DNA from: Escherichia coli
GTDB taxonomy: Bacteria > Pseudomonadota > Gammaproteobacteria > Enterobacterales > Enterobacteriaceae
DNA: 64,000 nucleotides
Strand: one strand, 5' to 3'
Assembly: GCF_048403405.1 (NCBI RefSeq)
Contig: NZ_CP183129.1
Position 1 is the stretch's first letter, and each line of letters opens with the position of its first letter. Below the pieces are notes generated by a model. The model searched no databases. It had not been told where the DNA came from and saw only the letters and a list, made by a program, of their open reading frames with translations. Both the position numbers and the translations under genes were made by a program. Below are positions 514 through 40,382 of the stretch, in pieces.

Positions 514-2169
514 ATGACTCATCTTCCCCACTGGTGGCAAAACGGCGTTATCTACCAGATTTATCCAAAGAGTTTTCAGGACACCACGGGTAGCGGCACC
601 GGCGATTTACGTGGCGTTATCCAACGCCTGGACTATCTGCATAAACTGGGCGTTGATGCCATCTGGCTAACCCCCTTTTATGTCTCTCCCCAGGTCGATA
701 ACGGTTACGACGTAGCGAATTATACGGCGATTGATCCCACCTATGGCACGCTGGACGATTTTGACGAACTGGTGACGCAGGCAAAATCTCGCGGGATTCG
801 TATCATTCTCGATATGGTGTTTAACCATACCTCTACCCAACATGCCTGGTTTCGCGAGGCGCTGAACAAAGCAAGCCCTTACCGCCAGTTTTATATCTGG
901 CGCGATGGAGAACCAGAAACGCCACCGAACAACTGGCGTTCAAAATTCGGTGGTAGTGCGTGGCACTGGCATGCAGAAAGCGAACAGTACTATTTGCATC
1001 TCTTTGCACCAGAACAGGCGGATCTCAACTGGGAGAATCCAGCGGTACGCGCAGAGCTGAAAAAAGTCTGTGAGTTCTGGGCCGATCGTGGGGTCGACGG
1101 GTTGCGCCTGGATGTGGTGAATCTGATCTCCAAAGATCCGCGTTACCCTGAAGACCAGGATGGCGACGGGCGTCGCTTCTACACCGACGGGCCACGAGCA
1201 CACGAGTTTTTGCACGAGATGAACCGCGATGTGTTTACGCCACGCGGGTTAATGACCGTAGGTGAAATGTCCTCCACCAGCCTTGAGCATTGCCAGCGAT
1301 ACGCGGCTCTGACAGGCAGTGAATTGTCGATGACCTTTAATTTTCATCACCTGAAAGTCGATTATCCCGGTGGTGAAAAATGGACGCTGGCTAAACCTGA
1401 CTTTGTGGCGTTGAAAACATTGTTCCGCCACTGGCAACAAGGAATGCACAACGTGGCATGGAATGCCTTGTTCTGGTGTAACCACGATCAGCCGCGCATT
1501 GTTTCTCGCTTTGGTGATGAAGGTGAATACCGCGTGCCTGCGGCAAAAATGCTGGCGATGGTGCTGCATGGCATGCAGGGAACGCCGTATATCTACCAGG
1601 GCGAAGAGATTGGCATGACCAACCCGCATTTCACGCGCATTACTGACTATCGCGACGTGGAGAGCCTCAATATGTTTGCCGAACAGCGCAACAATGGGCG
1701 TGATGCCGACGAGTTATTGGCAATCCTCGCCAGTAAATCCCGTGACAACAGTCGCACACCCATGCAATGGAGCAACGGCGATAATGCCGGGTTTACGGCT
1801 GGCGAACCGTGGATTGGTCTGGGCGATAACTATCAGGAAATCAACGTAGAAGCCGCGCTGACCGATGAGTCCTCGGTGTTTTACACCTACCAAAAGTTAA
1901 TCGCACTGCGTAAGCAAGAAGCCGTTCTGACATGGGGCGATTACCAGGATCTGCTGCCAAACAGCCCTGTATTGTGGTGCTATCGCCGTGAATGGAAGGG
2001 GCAAACCTTGTTGGTCATTGCCAACCTTAGCCGTGAGATCCAACCCTGGCAACCAGGGCAAATGCGCGGCAACTGGCAGCTTGTGATGCATAACTACGAA
2101 GAAGCCTCACCACAACCCTGCGCCATGACTTTACGGCCTTTTGAGGCTGTCTGGTGGTTACAAAAGTAA
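514..2169 (+). CDS. treC: trehalose-6-phosphate hydrolase
   Basis: 551 aa from ATG 514; GH13 alpha-amylase family sequence (MTHLPHWWQNGVIYQIYPKSF...); the longer ORF from 367 overlaps treB and is rejected. Confidence 0.95.
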   Translation: MTHLPHWWQNGVIYQIYPKSFQDTTGSGTGDLRGVIQRLDYLHKLGVDAIWLTPFYVSPQVDNGYDVANYTAIDPTYGTLDDFDELVTQAKSRGIRIILDMVFNHTSTQHAWFREALNKASPYRQFYIWRDGEPETPPNNWRSKFGGSAWHWHAESEQYYLHLFAPEQADLNWENPAVRAELKKVCEFWADRGVDGLRLDVVNLISKDPRYPEDQDGDGRRFYTDGPRAHEFLHEMNRDVFTPRGLMTVGEMSSTSLEHCQRYAALTGSELSMTFNFHHLKVDYPGGEKWTLAKPDFVALKTLFRHWQQGMHNVAWNALFWCNHDQPRIVSRFGDEGEYRVPAAKMLAMVLHGMQGTPYIYQGEEIGMTNPHFTRITDYRDVESLNMFAEQRNNGRDADELLAILASKSRDNSRTPMQWSNGDNAGFTAGEPWIGLGDNYQEINVEAALTDESSVFYTYQKLIALRKQEAVLTWGDYQDLLPNSPVLWCYRREWKGQTLLVIANLSREIQPWQPGQMRGNWQLVMHNYEEASPQPCAMTLRPFEAVWWLQK

Positions 2170-2181
2170 ATCTTCGCTAAG

Positions 2182-2212
2182 CCCCGGTAATGCCGGTCAT
2201 TCCGGGGTTTTG
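2182..2212 (+). terminator. rho-independent terminator candidate downstream of treC
   Basis: ccccgg (2182-2187) pairs with ccgggg (2202-2207), followed by tttt 2208-2211. Confidence 0.6.
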
Positions 2213-2233
2213 CCTGTCAGCATGTTGTTTTTG

Positions 2234-2249
2234 TTGATTTTATAATCAA
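2234..2249. promoter_or_regulatory. FNR-like inverted repeat in nrdD upstream region (TTGAT-N6-ATCAA)
   Basis: ttgat 2234-2238 and atcaa 2245-2249; spacing is 6 not the canonical 4, so assignment is tentative; nrdDG is known to be FNR-activated. Confidence 0.3.
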
Positions 2250-2354
2250 AAAATTCATTAAAAAATTTACATATCGCTGTAGCGCCCGTCATCCGTACGC
2301 TCTGCTTTTTACTTTGAGCTACATCAAAAAAAGTTCAAACATCCTTGATGCAAA

Positions 2355-2401
2355 GCACTATATATAGACTTTAAAATGCGTCCCAACCCAATATGTTGTA
2401 T
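2355..2401. promoter_or_regulatory. pair of NrdR-box-like sequences upstream of nrdD
   Basis: gcactatatatagact (2355-2370) and accaatatgttgtat (2386-2401), each about 13/16 match to my recollection of the NrdR box consensus, centres 31 bp apart; tataat-like -10 at 2410-2415. Confidence 0.45.
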
Positions 2402-2562
2402 TAATCGACTATAATTGCTACTACAGCTCCCCACGAAAAAGGTGCGGCGTTGTGGATAAGCGGATGGTGATTGCGGAAAGCACCGGAAAACGAAACAAAA
2501 AAACCGGAAAACGCCTTTCCCAATTTCTGTGGATAACCTGTTCTTAAAAATATGGAGCGATC

Positions 2563-4701
2563 ATGACACCGCATGTGATGAAACGAGACGGCTGCAAAGT
2601 GCCGTTTAAATCAGAGCGCATCAAAGAAGCGATTCTGCGTGCAGCTAAAGCAGCGGAAGTCGATGATGCCGATTATTGCGCCACTGTTGCCGCGGTTGTC
2701 AGCGAGCAGATGCAGGGCCGCAACCAGGTGGATATCAATGAGATCCAGACCGCAGTTGAAAACCAGCTGATGTCGGGTCCATACAAACAACTGGCTCGTG
2801 CTTACATCGAGTACCGTCACGATCGCGACATTGAACGTGAAAAACGCGGTCGCCTGAACCAGGAGATCCGTGGTCTGGTCGAGCAGACCAACTCCTCGTT
2901 ACTCAACGAAAACGCCAACAAAGACAGCAAGGTGATTCCAACCCAGCGCGATCTGCTGGCCGGGATCGTGGCTAAACACTATGCACGCCAGCACCTGCTG
3001 CCGCGTGACGTGGTGCAGGCACATGAACGTGGTGATATTCACTATCACGATCTCGATTACTCGCCGTTCTTCCCGATGTTCAACTGCATGTTGATCGACC
3101 TGAAAGGCATGCTGACCCAGGGCTTTAAAATGGGGAACGCCGAGATTGAACCGCCGAAGTCGATCTCTACGGCAACCGCGGTAACTGCGCAGATTATTGC
3201 CCAGGTCGCCAGCCATATTTATGGCGGCACCACCATTAACCGTATCGATGAAGTGCTGGCACCGTTTGTCACCGCCAGCTACAACAAACATCGCAAGACC
3301 GCAGAAGAGTGGAACATCCCGGACGCCGAAGGCTACGCTAACTCTCGTACCATCAAAGAGTGCTACGATGCCTTCCAGTCGCTGGAGTACGAAGTAAACA
3401 CCCTGCACACCGCCAACGGTCAAACGCCGTTTGTGACCTTTGGTTTTGGTCTGGGCACCAGCTGGGAATCGCGCCTGATTCAGGAATCTATCCTGCGTAA
3501 TCGTATCGCAGGCCTCGGTAAAAACCGTAAAACTGCGGTGTTCCCGAAACTGGTGTTTGCGATTCGCGATGGCCTGAACCATAAAAAAGGCGATCCGAAC
3601 TACGACATCAAACAGCTGGCGCTGGAGTGCGCAAGCAAGCGCATGTATCCGGATATCCTGAACTACGATCAGGTAGTGAAAGTCACCGGTTCGTTTAAAA
3701 CCCCGATGGGCTGCCGCAGCTTCCTCGGCGTGTGGGAAAATGAAAACGGCGAGCAGATCCACGATGGTCGTAACAACCTCGGCGTGATCAGCCTGAACCT
3801 GCCGCGTATTGCTCTGGAGGCAAAAGGCGATGAAGCCACCTTCTGGAAGCTGCTGGATGAACGTCTGGTGCTGGCACGTAAGGCGCTGATGACCCGTATC
3901 GCTCGTCTCGAAGGCGTGAAAGCGCGCGTAGCCCCGATCCTCTATATGGAAGGCGCTTGTGGCGTGCGTCTGAATGCTGACGACGACGTTTCTGAAATCT
4001 TCAAAAACGGTCGTGCGTCTATTTCGCTGGGTTACATCGGCATCCACGAAACCATTAACGCGCTGTTCGGCGGCGAGCATGTTTACGACAACGAGCAGCT
4101 GCGCGCGAAAGGTATTGCGATTGTTGAACGTCTGCGTCAGGCAGTGGATCAGTGGAAAGAAGAAACGGGTTATGGCTTCAGTCTCTACAGCACGCCGAGT
4201 GAAAACCTGTGCGACCGCTTCTGCCGTCTCGATACCGCTGAGTTTGGCGTGGTGCCGGGCGTGACCGATAAAGGTTACTACACCAACAGTTTCCACCTTG
4301 ATGTGGAGAAAAAGGTGAACCCGTATGACAAGATCGACTTTGAAGCGCCTTACCCGCCGCTGGCGAACGGTGGTTTCATTTGCTACGGCGAGTATCCAAA
4401 CATTCAGCACAACCTGAAGGCGCTGGAAGATGTCTGGGATTACAGCTATCAGCATGTACCGTATTACGGCACCAATACGCCGATCGATGAGTGCTACGAG
4501 TGTGGCTTTACTGGCGAGTTCGAGTGCACCAGCAAAGGCTTCACTTGCCCGAAATGTGGTAACCATGACGCCTCCCGTGTGTCGGTGACTCGCCGCGTGT
4601 GCGGATATTTAGGTAGCCCGGATGCACGTCCGTTTAACGCCGGTAAGCAGGAAGAAGTTAAGCGCCGCGTTAAACATTTGGGGAATGGGCAGATAGGTTA
4701 A
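2563..4701 (+). CDS. nrdD: anaerobic ribonucleoside-triphosphate reductase
   Basis: 712 aa; ATP-cone N-terminus, C-terminal glycyl-radical and Zn-ribbon Cys motifs (CYECGF...CPKCG). Confidence 0.97.
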   Translation: MTPHVMKRDGCKVPFKSERIKEAILRAAKAAEVDDADYCATVAAVVSEQMQGRNQVDINEIQTAVENQLMSGPYKQLARAYIEYRHDRDIEREKRGRLNQEIRGLVEQTNSSLLNENANKDSKVIPTQRDLLAGIVAKHYARQHLLPRDVVQAHERGDIHYHDLDYSPFFPMFNCMLIDLKGMLTQGFKMGNAEIEPPKSISTATAVTAQIIAQVASHIYGGTTINRIDEVLAPFVTASYNKHRKTAEEWNIPDAEGYANSRTIKECYDAFQSLEYEVNTLHTANGQTPFVTFGFGLGTSWESRLIQESILRNRIAGLGKNRKTAVFPKLVFAIRDGLNHKKGDPNYDIKQLALECASKRMYPDILNYDQVVKVTGSFKTPMGCRSFLGVWENENGEQIHDGRNNLGVISLNLPRIALEAKGDEATFWKLLDERLVLARKALMTRIARLEGVKARVAPILYMEGACGVRLNADDDVSEIFKNGRASISLGYIGIHETINALFGGEHVYDNEQLRAKGIAIVERLRQAVDQWKEETGYGFSLYSTPSENLCDRFCRLDTAEFGVVPGVTDKGYYTNSFHLDVEKKVNPYDKIDFEAPYPPLANGGFICYGEYPNIQHNLKALEDVWDYSYQHVPYYGTNTPIDECYECGFTGEFECTSKGFTCPKCGNHDASRVSVTRRVCGYLGSPDARPFNAGKQEEVKRRVKHLGNGQIG

Positions 4702-4885: not shown

Positions 4886-5350
4886 ATGAACTTTCATCAG
4901 TACTATCCTGTCGACATCGTCAACGGCCCCGGCACTCGCTGCACCCTGTTTGTCTCCGGGTGTGTTCATGAATGCCCCGGTTGCTATAACAAAAGCACAT
5001 GGCGGGTAAATTCCGGTCAGCCATTTACCAAAGCAATGGAAGACCAGATCATTAACGATCTAAATGACACTCGCATCAAACGCCAGGGGATTTCCCTCTC
5101 CGGCGGCGATCCGCTGCATCCGCAAAACGTGCCGGATATTCTGAAACTGGTACAACGAATCCGCGCCGAATGTCCGGGTAAAGACATTTGGGTGTGGACA
5201 GGCTATAAACTCGACGAACTCAACGCTGCGCAAATGCAGGTTGTTGATTTGATTAACGTACTGGTCGACGGCAAATTTGTGCAGGATTTAAAAGACCCTT
5301 CCCTGATCTGGCGCGGCAGCAGCAATCAGGTGGTGCATCATTTGCGATGA
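4886..5350 (+). CDS. nrdG: anaerobic ribonucleotide reductase activating protein (radical SAM)
   Basis: 154 aa; Cys cluster CVHECPGC typical of glycyl-radical activases. Confidence 0.95.
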   Translation: MNFHQYYPVDIVNGPGTRCTLFVSGCVHECPGCYNKSTWRVNSGQPFTKAMEDQIINDLNDTRIKRQGISLSGGDPLHPQNVPDILKLVQRIRAECPGKDIWVWTGYKLDELNAAQMQVVDLINVLVDGKFVQDLKDPSLIWRGSSNQVVHHLR

Positions 5351-14144: not shown

Positions 14145-14200
14145 AGTTTCCCCCGGTGAAAAGCGTGCGCCCGGTAAGCCAGATAAGACACAACAGCGTC

Positions 14201-14285
14201 GCATCAGGCATCTCGCACAATCGCCGGATGCGGCATAAACACCTTATCCGGCGGCGTACAAGTCGGCATCAGGCATTGATGCCCC
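14201..14285. repeat. REP-containing repeat cluster
   Basis: cgccggatgcggcataaacaccttatccggcg flanked by duplicated gcatcaggca motifs, between ytfR and ytfQ. Confidence 0.75.
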
Positions 14286-17311: not shown

Positions 17312-22863
<5,552 letters not shown>

Positions 22864-23810: not shown

Positions 23811-23987
23811 AGTTTTTCATTTATCAGCAGTCTGAATTTTAACCCTCTGGCGGCTTTACAGTACCTTACGCTATACTAGCCACTGAAAATGCCGGTTCAC
23901 TTTCTTCGAATCGGCTTTCAATGTGTATTTCACACAAATTAATCAACTTCCCCTTCCGAGGATCTGGCCTGAAAGGTCGGATAAGAT

Positions 23988-28431: not shown

Positions 28432-28620
28432 TTCTCCACCTCGTCTCTGTGAGCGGTGTTAACTTATTGTTTTACTTATACCCTATCGTTAATGAATGCG
28501 CCAACTGTGATAGTGTCATCATTTTCAAAGCGTAAAATTGTGGCATTCTTCACTGTTCTATAAGTAAGACGTTTATTCTCCCTTTTCTTTCGTATTCCCG
28601 ATGATAAAAGGATGTCCCTG

Positions 28621-39660: not shown

Positions 39661-40074
<414 letters not shown>

Positions 40075-40382
40075 TTATTCAGCCTCCTGTCTGGGTCAGC
40101 CGAATCCCGGGGAGGCAAGGAACGTGTTAAAGGTCGGCTGAAAAATGACGCGTTATAGTACTGACATACCCCGCTAAACTCAAGGCCAGCCGACAAATAA
40201 ATCTCATCTTTCACCAAATCGTACTAACACGCTGATTTGAAGTTCATCACACTTCATCATGGTGTTTTTTTGAACAACTGCATCAGAAATGGTCACCATC
40301 AACTTCTTTATCATTGATTAAAATTAAATCAGAAGATCATCACAGAGGAGAGCACACAAAGTCAGCCGTTGAGGAGGTATCT

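Follow-up and report, generated by a model that had tools for sequence, protein, structure and literature searches.

Regulatory sites in the treC-nrdD spacer of Escherichia coli: published FNR, NrdR and DnaA inputs to nrdDG and a conserved AT-rich element upstream of them

The spacer between treC and nrdD of the Escherichia coli chromosome occupies positions 2170-2562 (393 bp) of the stretch of 64,000 nucleotides analysed here, which we refer to as the window. Upstream of it lies treC (515-2169, plus strand; ORF list and RefSeq annotation under the BLAST match), the gene for trehalose-6-phosphate hydrolase, and downstream of it lie nrdD (2563-4701, plus strand; ORF list and RefSeq annotation), which encodes the anaerobic ribonucleoside-triphosphate reductase, and nrdG (4886-5350, plus strand; ORF list and K-12 annotation), the second gene of the operon, which encodes the activating enzyme. 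By BLAST, 551 bp spanning the spacer are 100% identical to E. coli JE86-ST05; of 5426 complete E. coli genomes 5425 carry the region as a single copy, each time flanked by annotated treC and nrdD, and K-12 MG1655 has the same gene order, with flanking genes and distances as in the window. Compared with the nrdDG promoter of K-12 (Roca 2008; Torrents et al. 2007; Rozman Grinberg et al. 2025), the window represents the same locus with strain-level SNPs only, and what sets it apart is a minority haplotype at 2242-2250 that gives rise to a perfect TTGAT-N6-ATCAA dyad. We therefore have little doubt that the spacer holds the regulatory region already characterised for the nrdDG operon of E. coli, which codes for the class III, anaerobic ribonucleotide reductase. 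Conservation was assessed throughout in a sample of 80 enterobacterial species, whose sequences were fetched via the N-terminus of NrdD.

Both ends of the spacer are readily assigned to the flanking genes. At its treC end lies an intrinsic terminator (2179-2212, plus strand), in which a short T-tract comes after a G+C-rich hairpin (AAGCCCCGG..CCGGGGUUU). RNA folding of 2165-2262 yields a minimum free energy (MFE) of -26.3 kcal/mol (z = -3.4), with the terminator hairpin contained in both the MFE and the centroid structure, and transcription of treC would be expected to end at this hairpin. At the opposite end the Shine-Dalgarno sequence GGAG of nrdD, as read from the sequence, is located at 2554-2557 (plus strand) and is at least 90% conserved over the 80 species.

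The most clear-cut elements of the spacer are two NrdR boxes, box 1 (GCACTATATATAGACT) at 2355-2370 and box 2 (ACCCAATATGTTGTAT) at 2386-2401, which are spaced by 31 bp from start to start and separated by a 15-bp linker (2371-2385). Relative to the transcription start that can be deduced from published distances (see below) they cover -30 to -15 and +2 to +17, respectively. A first reading of this DNA, made from its sequence only, had given exactly these coordinates and this spacing, and they are borne out by a scan with a matrix that was trained on the boxes of nrdAB and nrdHIEF only and is hence independent of the nrdDG locus: over the approximately 64,000 positions of the window, 2355 and 2386 rank first and second, and no other pair in the 64-kb window with a spacing of 30-33 bp reaches that score. 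Six positions of the NrdR box, C4, A6, A8, T9, T11 and G13, are reported to be highly conserved (10.64898/2026.05.11.724285), and both nrdDG boxes carry all six of them. Likewise, a pair with no more than one miss over the twelve key positions is found in every one of the 80 species, with a spacing of 31 bp in 73 and of 32 bp in 7 of them. In the window the pair precedes the start codon of nrdD by 162 bp. Finally, window positions 2350-2406, which include both boxes, are letter for letter the published 57-bp nrdDG probe that binds E. coli NrdR with a KD of 160 nM in the presence of ATP plus dATP (PMC12176259). Thus, what is expected of an NrdR operator, namely 16-bp boxes, a linker of 15-16 bp, location in a promoter of ribonucleotide reductase genes and binding documented in the literature, is all found here. 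The sequence-only reading had also taken the pair as a sign of repression of nrdDG by NrdR and this is correct, because the boxes match the experimentally bound nrdDG operator exactly. The NrdR pair is genuine and it is already known.

The same spacer contains two FNR sites of the canonical type, which are published and had been overlooked in the first reading. FNR site 2 (TTGAGCTACATCAA, 2314-2327) deviates by one mismatch from TTGAT-N4-ATCAA and FNR site 1 (TTGATGCAAAGCAC, 2345-2358) by two, and both are part of the published FNR 54-mer TACTTTGAGCTACATCAAAAAAAGCTCAAACATCCTTGATGCAAAGCACTATAT, which equals 2310-2363 of the window save for one SNP at 2334 in the spacer between the sites (PMC10425943). 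That paper, which cites Roca 2008, places the centres of the nrdDG FNR sites at -33.5 (site 1) and -64.5 (site 2). In the literature site 2 is regarded as the essential activating site. The position of -33.5 is unusual for activation, and the mechanism of activation is called a mystery in PMC10425943. An 87-bp minimal nrdDG promoter, which extends to the start site, still responds to FNR, though weakly (PMC10208419). In our sample the two FNR sites are spaced by 31 bp in 62 of the 80 species, their offset to NrdR box 1 is invariant (41 bp), and in most genera the ortholog of site 1 reads TTGATGCAAATCAC. Site 1 and NrdR box 1 have 4 bp in common, and an overlap of FNR and NrdR sites has been noted in Salmonella too (PMC2892513). 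Taken together, 2314-2327 and 2345-2358 combine few mismatches to TTGAT-N4-ATCAA with positions suited to FNR action. In vivo binding data point to the same place. The older version of the K-12 genome is 1977 bp shorter than the one of 4,641,652 bp. When shifted by these 1977 bp, the FNR ChIP-seq summit at nrdD at 4,460,925 converts to 4,462,902 and so coincides with the middle of FNR site 2. The summit coordinate itself is that of PMC3688515.

The centres of the two FNR sites in the window, together with their published distances, allow the start of nrdDG transcription to be deduced: 2351.5 + 33.5 and 2320.5 + 64.5 both lead to 2385 (plus strand), which corresponds to 4,462,838 in MG1655 (NC_000913.3). 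From the same distances the hexamer TAAAAT at 2372-2377 (plus strand), which is part of a block that is at least 90% conserved over the 80 species, would be the putative -10 element. With a start at 2385 the transcribed leader comprises 2385-2562 and therefore 178 nt, not 393. The description of the whole spacer as a long nrdD leader, with which the first reading had begun, must accordingly be given up; the 393 bp are composed of the treC terminator, approximately 170 bp of upstream promoter DNA and a 5'UTR of 178 nt, as far as the published distances define it. A second conserved -10-like hexamer, TATAAT, is located at 2410-2415 and leaves room for another start site, which would lie near 2422. 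A generic promoter and terminator scan returned one minus-strand sigma-70-like match, which is at chance level, and missed the activator-dependent nrdDG promoter. Binding of H-NS to nrdDG is briefly mentioned in the literature.

Within the leader proper the most conserved features are two consensus DnaA boxes, which had escaped notice in the sequence-only reading. The first, TTATCCACA, is located at 2451-2459 (minus strand), that is, at +67 to +75 by the start site deduced from the FNR distances. The second is part of a double box (2528-2547, minus strand), in which TTATCCACA at 2528-2536 is followed 2 bp apart by TTAAGAACA at 2539-2547, just upstream of the ribosome-binding site. The 64-kb window has no further TTATCCACA box, and the entire E. 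coli genome is reported to contain only 32 consensus DnaA boxes (PMC11317965). A pair of coding-strand DnaA boxes spaced by 76-79 bp occurs in 66 of the 80 species. Conservation is poor over 2420-2450 and 2460-2525; what is kept are the DnaA boxes and the ribosome-binding site only. A DnaA ChIP-seq peak with 62-fold enrichment has been recorded at nrdD, and the double box at 2528-2547 is identical to one listed for this peak (PMC11317965). The leader therefore offers what strong binding of DnaA in vivo calls for, a TTATCCACA 9-mer with a second box 2-3 bp away. The level of NrdD protein is raised in a DARS2 deletion strain and in mutants described as lowering the DnaA-ATP fraction (PMC12371093), which points to repression by DnaA. 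We infer from this direction of change that DnaA most likely dampens nrdD expression.

In its overall architecture the region resembles that of nrdAB of E. coli. Both are ribonucleotide reductase operons, and both have an NrdR pair with a 15-bp linker and a double DnaA box that is bound in ChIP-seq. They differ, however, in that nrdDG carries its DnaA boxes within the transcribed leader, at a distance of 76-79 bp from each other, and not ahead of the promoter, and in that oxygen control by FNR is a property of nrdDG only. The layout indicates how the three regulators act. Under anoxic conditions FNR dimers at 2314-2327 (-64.5) and 2345-2358 (-33.5), 31 bp apart, activate nrdDG, the distances again being the published ones. 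NrdR binds to box 1, which overlaps FNR site 1 and the core-promoter spacer, and to box 2 at +2 to +17, and by virtue of these overlaps it competes both with FNR and with RNA polymerase, in keeping with repression through occlusion. DnaA, when bound in the leader, would most likely dampen expression of the operon.

Upstream of these sites, at 2234-2249, lies the TTGAT-N6-ATCAA inverted repeat (TTGATTTTATAATCAA; centre at -143.5 by the same numbering) that had been pointed out in the first reading, and its sequence is indeed as described. It can also be read as a 6-4-6 arrangement, TTGATT-TTAT-AATCAA. Motifs of the form TTGAT-N6-ATCAA occur twice in the 64-kb window as compared to 0.10 expected, and in 0.05% of 2000 dinucleotide shuffles of the 393-bp spacer; when any spacing of 0-10 bp is admitted, the proportion of shuffles rises to 0.75%. 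The repeat is a feature of a minority haplotype of E. coli. The K-12 counterpart, TTGATTTTTCAACCAG, shows five clustered differences which abolish the right arm. The exact 61-bp haplotype of the window is found in 346 of 5425 E. coli genomes and a further 747 genomes come within 1-3 mismatches of it, whereas about 3835 are K-12-like. Within Escherichia the right arm varies between ATCAA, ACCAG, AACAG and ATCAG, and among the 80 related species only about 2-3 have the N6 repeat at one mismatch or less. The haplotype of the window also creates a perfect TATAAT at 2241-2246. We considered a lineage-specific promoter at this hexamer and rejected it, as there is neither a usable -35 element nor a TG extension. 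The 'constitutive promoter' TTTTCA-16-AAAAAT assigned by SELEX to the K-12 version of the palindrome region (Shimada 2014) was likewise set aside, being a prediction from a low-resolution peak.

What is conserved at this place is not the repeat but the sequence that contains it. The 80-species alignment reveals an AT-rich element at 2226-2250 with the cross-genus consensus TGTTTTTG-TTGAATwwTTAATCAG, located near -145 by the start site deduced above and retained upstream of nrdD in most Enterobacteriaceae, and the perfect dyad is an accidentally symmetric version of this element in a minority haplotype. The block TGTTTTTGTTGAATAATTAATCAG is near-identical in Citrobacter, Salmonella, Enterobacter, Lelliottia and Phytobacter, even though the sequence just upstream cannot be aligned, and the element accompanies nrdD even where the adjacent upstream sequence differs between genera. 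Conservation is highest at G2233, A2237, T2243 and C2247, which surround an A/T core. This G-N13-C pattern agrees better with the sites of the DNA-bending protein Fis than with an FNR-like dyad of any kind. Fis sites have a 15-bp core with an A/T centre that begins with G at -7 and ends with C at +7, has R at -3 as well as Y at +3, and avoids A at -4 and T at +4. The rule describes both the 15-mer of the window at 2233-2247 (GTTGATTTTATAATC; centre at about -145) and the K-12 variant GTTGATTTTTCAACC, and as a sequence match it holds at the corresponding place in about 50 of 70 species, the background rate of the strict 15-mer rule being 0.0025 per position. All compared Escherichia haplotypes save that of E. 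albertii keep G(-7), R(-3), W5, Y(+3) and C(+7) in spite of the broken dyad. At position -4 the 15-mer has a G, where a pyrimidine is preferred. Between the 15-mer and the centre of FNR site 2 there are four classes of distance, 68.5-69.5, 78.5-81.5, 91.5 and 102.5-103.5 bp, in steps of about 11 bp, roughly one helical turn. Judging from these spacings, the helical phase of the element relative to the FNR sites seems to be preserved.

These observations lead us to propose, tentatively and as one possibility among several, that 2226-2250 may be an undescribed site for a DNA-bending protein that would tune nrdDG, most likely of the Fis type, with a dimeric regulator as the alternative. The element is comparable to the upstream Fis sites of promoters regulated by growth rate, such as sites I-III of rrnB P1, in that it is an AT-rich 15-mer with G at -7 and C at +7, lies well upstream of the promoter and appears to be helically phased; it differs from them in its G at -4 and in being a putative site. 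Fis is a reported activator of nrdAB (PMC4009431), and by analogy a Fis-type site upstream of nrdDG is plausible. Then again, nrdAB has Fis sites, whereas the site upstream of nrdDG is a putative Fis match. The single Fis ChIP-seq entry that we found at nrdD comes from Salmonella LT2 and maps within the ORF of nrdD, not to the spacer. Fis motifs are degenerate and are readily matched by AT-rich DNA. A comparison by eye with the consensus sequences of IHF, Lrp, ArcA, PhoP, Fur, Cra, LexA, TyrR, NarL and LacI-family proteins brought up none that fits the upstream element.

But does the element have to be regulatory at all? It may possibly be what is left of an AT-rich spacer and a terminator T-tract, with five clustered SNPs in a single lineage having produced the dyad by chance, and we consider this a reasonable reading, albeit not a probable one. 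The free variation of the right arm within Escherichia would agree with it, as would the lack of the dyad in K-12, in which the promoter was characterised, and the fact that the spacer shows no excess of perfect inverted repeats with 5-bp arms (7 observed, 6.05 expected, P = 0.39). The element has a T-run at its 5' end which in several genera forms the tail of the upstream gene's terminator and in Enterobacter, Kosakonia and Klebsiella directly follows the terminator hairpin, and this could explain part of the conservation of the element. Moreover, the 87-bp minimal promoter responds to FNR, weak as it is (PMC10208419). Against a mere remnant, however, speak the near-identity of TGTTTTTGTTGAATAATTAATCAG across five genera in which the adjoining upstream sequence is unalignable, the persistence of the element next to nrdD despite differing sequence upstream of it, the change of its distance to FNR site 2 in steps of about 11 bp, and the occurrence of the 15-mer at the same place in about 50 species, as compared to a background of 0.0025 per position.

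A further reading, which we consider unlikely, is that the repeat is the operator of a dimeric regulator which recognises TTGA-N8-TCAA near -143, either an ARG-box-like site of ArgR or a site of an undescribed factor. It draws on the symmetry of the element. Of the registers tested, none is more symmetric than the dyad with its centre at 2241.5, with 71.5% of cells paired as compared to at most 51% when the register is slid, so that it exceeds the shuffled as well as the slid controls, and some genomes show double changes from T-A to C-G that preserve pairing, such as TCGA..TCGA in Cedecea-like genomes. These controls ignore relatedness, however, and the compensatory cases may go back to a single event in one clade; in addition, the right arm is broken in most E. 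coli including K-12. As to ArgR, the ARG box has 18 bp with the core TGAAT-N4-ATTCA, and operators of ArgR normally consist of two such boxes 3 bp apart. When compared with this consensus, the core match at the same centre of 2241.5 amounts to 12 of 14 positions in the window (TGATTTTATAATCA), to 13 of 14 in the cross-genus consensus (TGAATwTTTAATCA) and to about 9 of 14 in K-12. Yet the second ARG box at a distance of 3 bp is missing, as neither the window nor the Citrobacter-type sequence has a recognisable box 21 bp away on either side, and we know of no link between ArgR and nrdDG. On balance, the pattern of conserved positions leads us to prefer a Fis-type site for a bending protein to a TTGA-N8-TCAA operator.

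That the repeat serves as a third, non-canonical FNR site which aids anaerobic activation is very improbable. Each of its arms matches an FNR half-site perfectly, and half-sites paired in this way at a spacing of 0-10 bp are rare in shuffled spacers, as mentioned above. Dimers of the CRP/FNR family, however, need a spacing of 4 bp between the half-sites, and at 6 bp the spacer of the repeat is 2 bp too long. This objection had been raised in the sequence-only reading as well, and it holds. Nor is the repeat conserved in orthologous promoters: in about 77 of the 80 related species it is not found at one mismatch or less. The dyad is missing from K-12, where FNR regulation was worked out with two sites only, and the FNR ChIP-seq summit, by the coordinate conversion given above, lies at FNR site 2 and thus about 79 bp off. 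Since the FNR family requires N4 and since K-12, in which FNR control was worked out, is without the dyad, the repeat at 2234-2249 is not an FNR site. The sequence-only reading had left a choice between FNR sites elsewhere in the leader and a repeat that binds another factor. Its first half was sound, in that a scan for FNR sites and the mapped elements of the promoter place canonical sites at 2314-2327 and 2345-2358 and none at 2234-2249. Its second half survives in a weaker form only, as the dyad as such is lineage-specific and what may be bound is the conserved AT-rich element, a putative site, which the dyad overlies.

Finally, the idea that the leader owes its length to a cis-regulatory RNA such as a riboswitch, an attenuator or a regulatory upstream ORF can be dismissed with still more confidence, for although the 5'UTR is long (178 nt by the published FNR distances) and contains an ORF of 27 codons at 2464-2547, this ORF lies in poorly conserved sequence, an Rfam search of 2100-2700 at E values up to 10 returned only noise (snoRNA, His leader and STnc410, with 13-20 bits as compared to gathering thresholds of 35-55), the RNAalifold consensus of the leader over 18 genera reaches -3.4 kcal/mol with no conserved fold, and the single-sequence fold has a z of -1.2, so that the leader shows neither a known RNA family nor a conserved covarying structure.

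The inputs of NrdR, FNR and DnaA and the sites through which they act are all published already, and in this respect the finding is an ordinary one. The positions of the sites, their conservation and the binding of NrdR, FNR and DnaA are shown by the present analysis or by the papers cited; the exact start site and -10 hexamer, the direction in which DnaA acts and whatever function or binding protein is assigned to the upstream element are inferred. The work is of corrective value in that the FNR sites of this region are those at 2314-2327 and 2345-2358, not the N6 repeat, and in that the leader, by the published distances, has 178 nt and carries the DnaA boxes. The conserved AT-rich element near -145 is the sole piece that lies outside the published description of the region. 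If it is a real site, of the Fis type or another, a well-studied promoter would gain an input from growth phase, which would be a modest advance, and E. coli with the dyad and those with K-12-like haplotypes might differ in that regulation. As it stands, the nrdDG region couples the anaerobic supply of dNTPs to oxygen through FNR, to the balance of dATP and ATP through NrdR, and to the replication initiator DnaA.

Between the window and K-12, the region of the palindrome at 2234-2249 (TTGAT-N6-ATCAA), which overlies the AT-rich upstream element at 2226-2250 in the treC-nrdD spacer, differs by five single-nucleotide polymorphisms within 9 bp (2242-2250, ATAATCAAA versus TCAACCAGC). These define two E. 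coli haplotypes between which the flanking sequence is invariant, and the cluster looks like a small patch of recombination or selection. It is in the K-12 version of this region, at the equivalent of window 2238-2265, that a 'constitutive promoter' with the elements TTTTCA-16-AAAAAT maps, which was predicted in the treC-nrdD spacer by genomic SELEX with RNA polymerase holoenzyme (PMC3946193). A further E. coli strain, FCI1, carries a 9-bp deletion at the equivalent of window 2223-2231 that removes one copy of the near-repeat TGTTGTTTT / TGTTGATTT directly upstream of the palindrome. The only other TTGAT-N6-ATCAA sequence of the window, TTGATGGTGGCATCAA, is located at 19458-19473.

The DNA that separates the upstream element from FNR site 2 (2314-2327) contains three conserved blocks, namely AAATTTACA at 2263-2271, GCGCCCGT at 2283-2290 and TGTAC at about 2294-2298. 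The TTTACA block of this 2263-2298 region also conforms, in a few genera, to the Fis-type 15-mer rule (G-N13-C).

Inside the nrdDG leader, which extends from the deduced start at 2385 to 2562, a perfect -10-like hexamer, TATAAT, is present at 2410-2415 (+26 to +31) and is kept across genera as CTAynAT, with the T, the A and the last T retained. This hexamer could be a second promoter or else a sigma-70 pause element. If it is a second promoter, the FNR sites at 2345-2358 and 2314-2327 would then be placed at about -70.5 and -101.5, respectively. Further downstream, between the two DnaA boxes of the leader (2451-2459 and 2528-2536), the 11-nt sequence ACCGGAAAACG is directly repeated, with copies at 2482-2492 and 2503-2513; among the genomes aligned, this repeat is common to the window, K-12 and E. 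albertii and is lacking from the other lineages. In the rest of the window four Rfam matches score above the gathering score (14177-14253, 23869-23926, 28498-28620 and 40054-40138). They correspond to naRNA4, STnc450, the ES239 sRNA and the RpsF leader and bear no relation to the nrdD spacer finding.

Escherichia sp. ESNIH1, an Enterobacteriaceae MAG and Pseudescherichia vulneris (upstream regions L065, L066 and L068) have a leader that is shorter by about 105 bp. Their FNR pair lies at -144 and -113 relative to the ATG, and neither of the two DnaA boxes is present upstream of nrdD. Two perfect DnaA boxes are found upstream of nrdD in four regions from the more distant genera Edwardsiella, Limnobaculum and Serratia (L075, L077, L079 and L080), where they form a convergent pair separated by about 50-57 bp. 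The occurrence of two convergent boxes in these genera suggests that DnaA input to nrdD may be older than the exact layout of the boxes.
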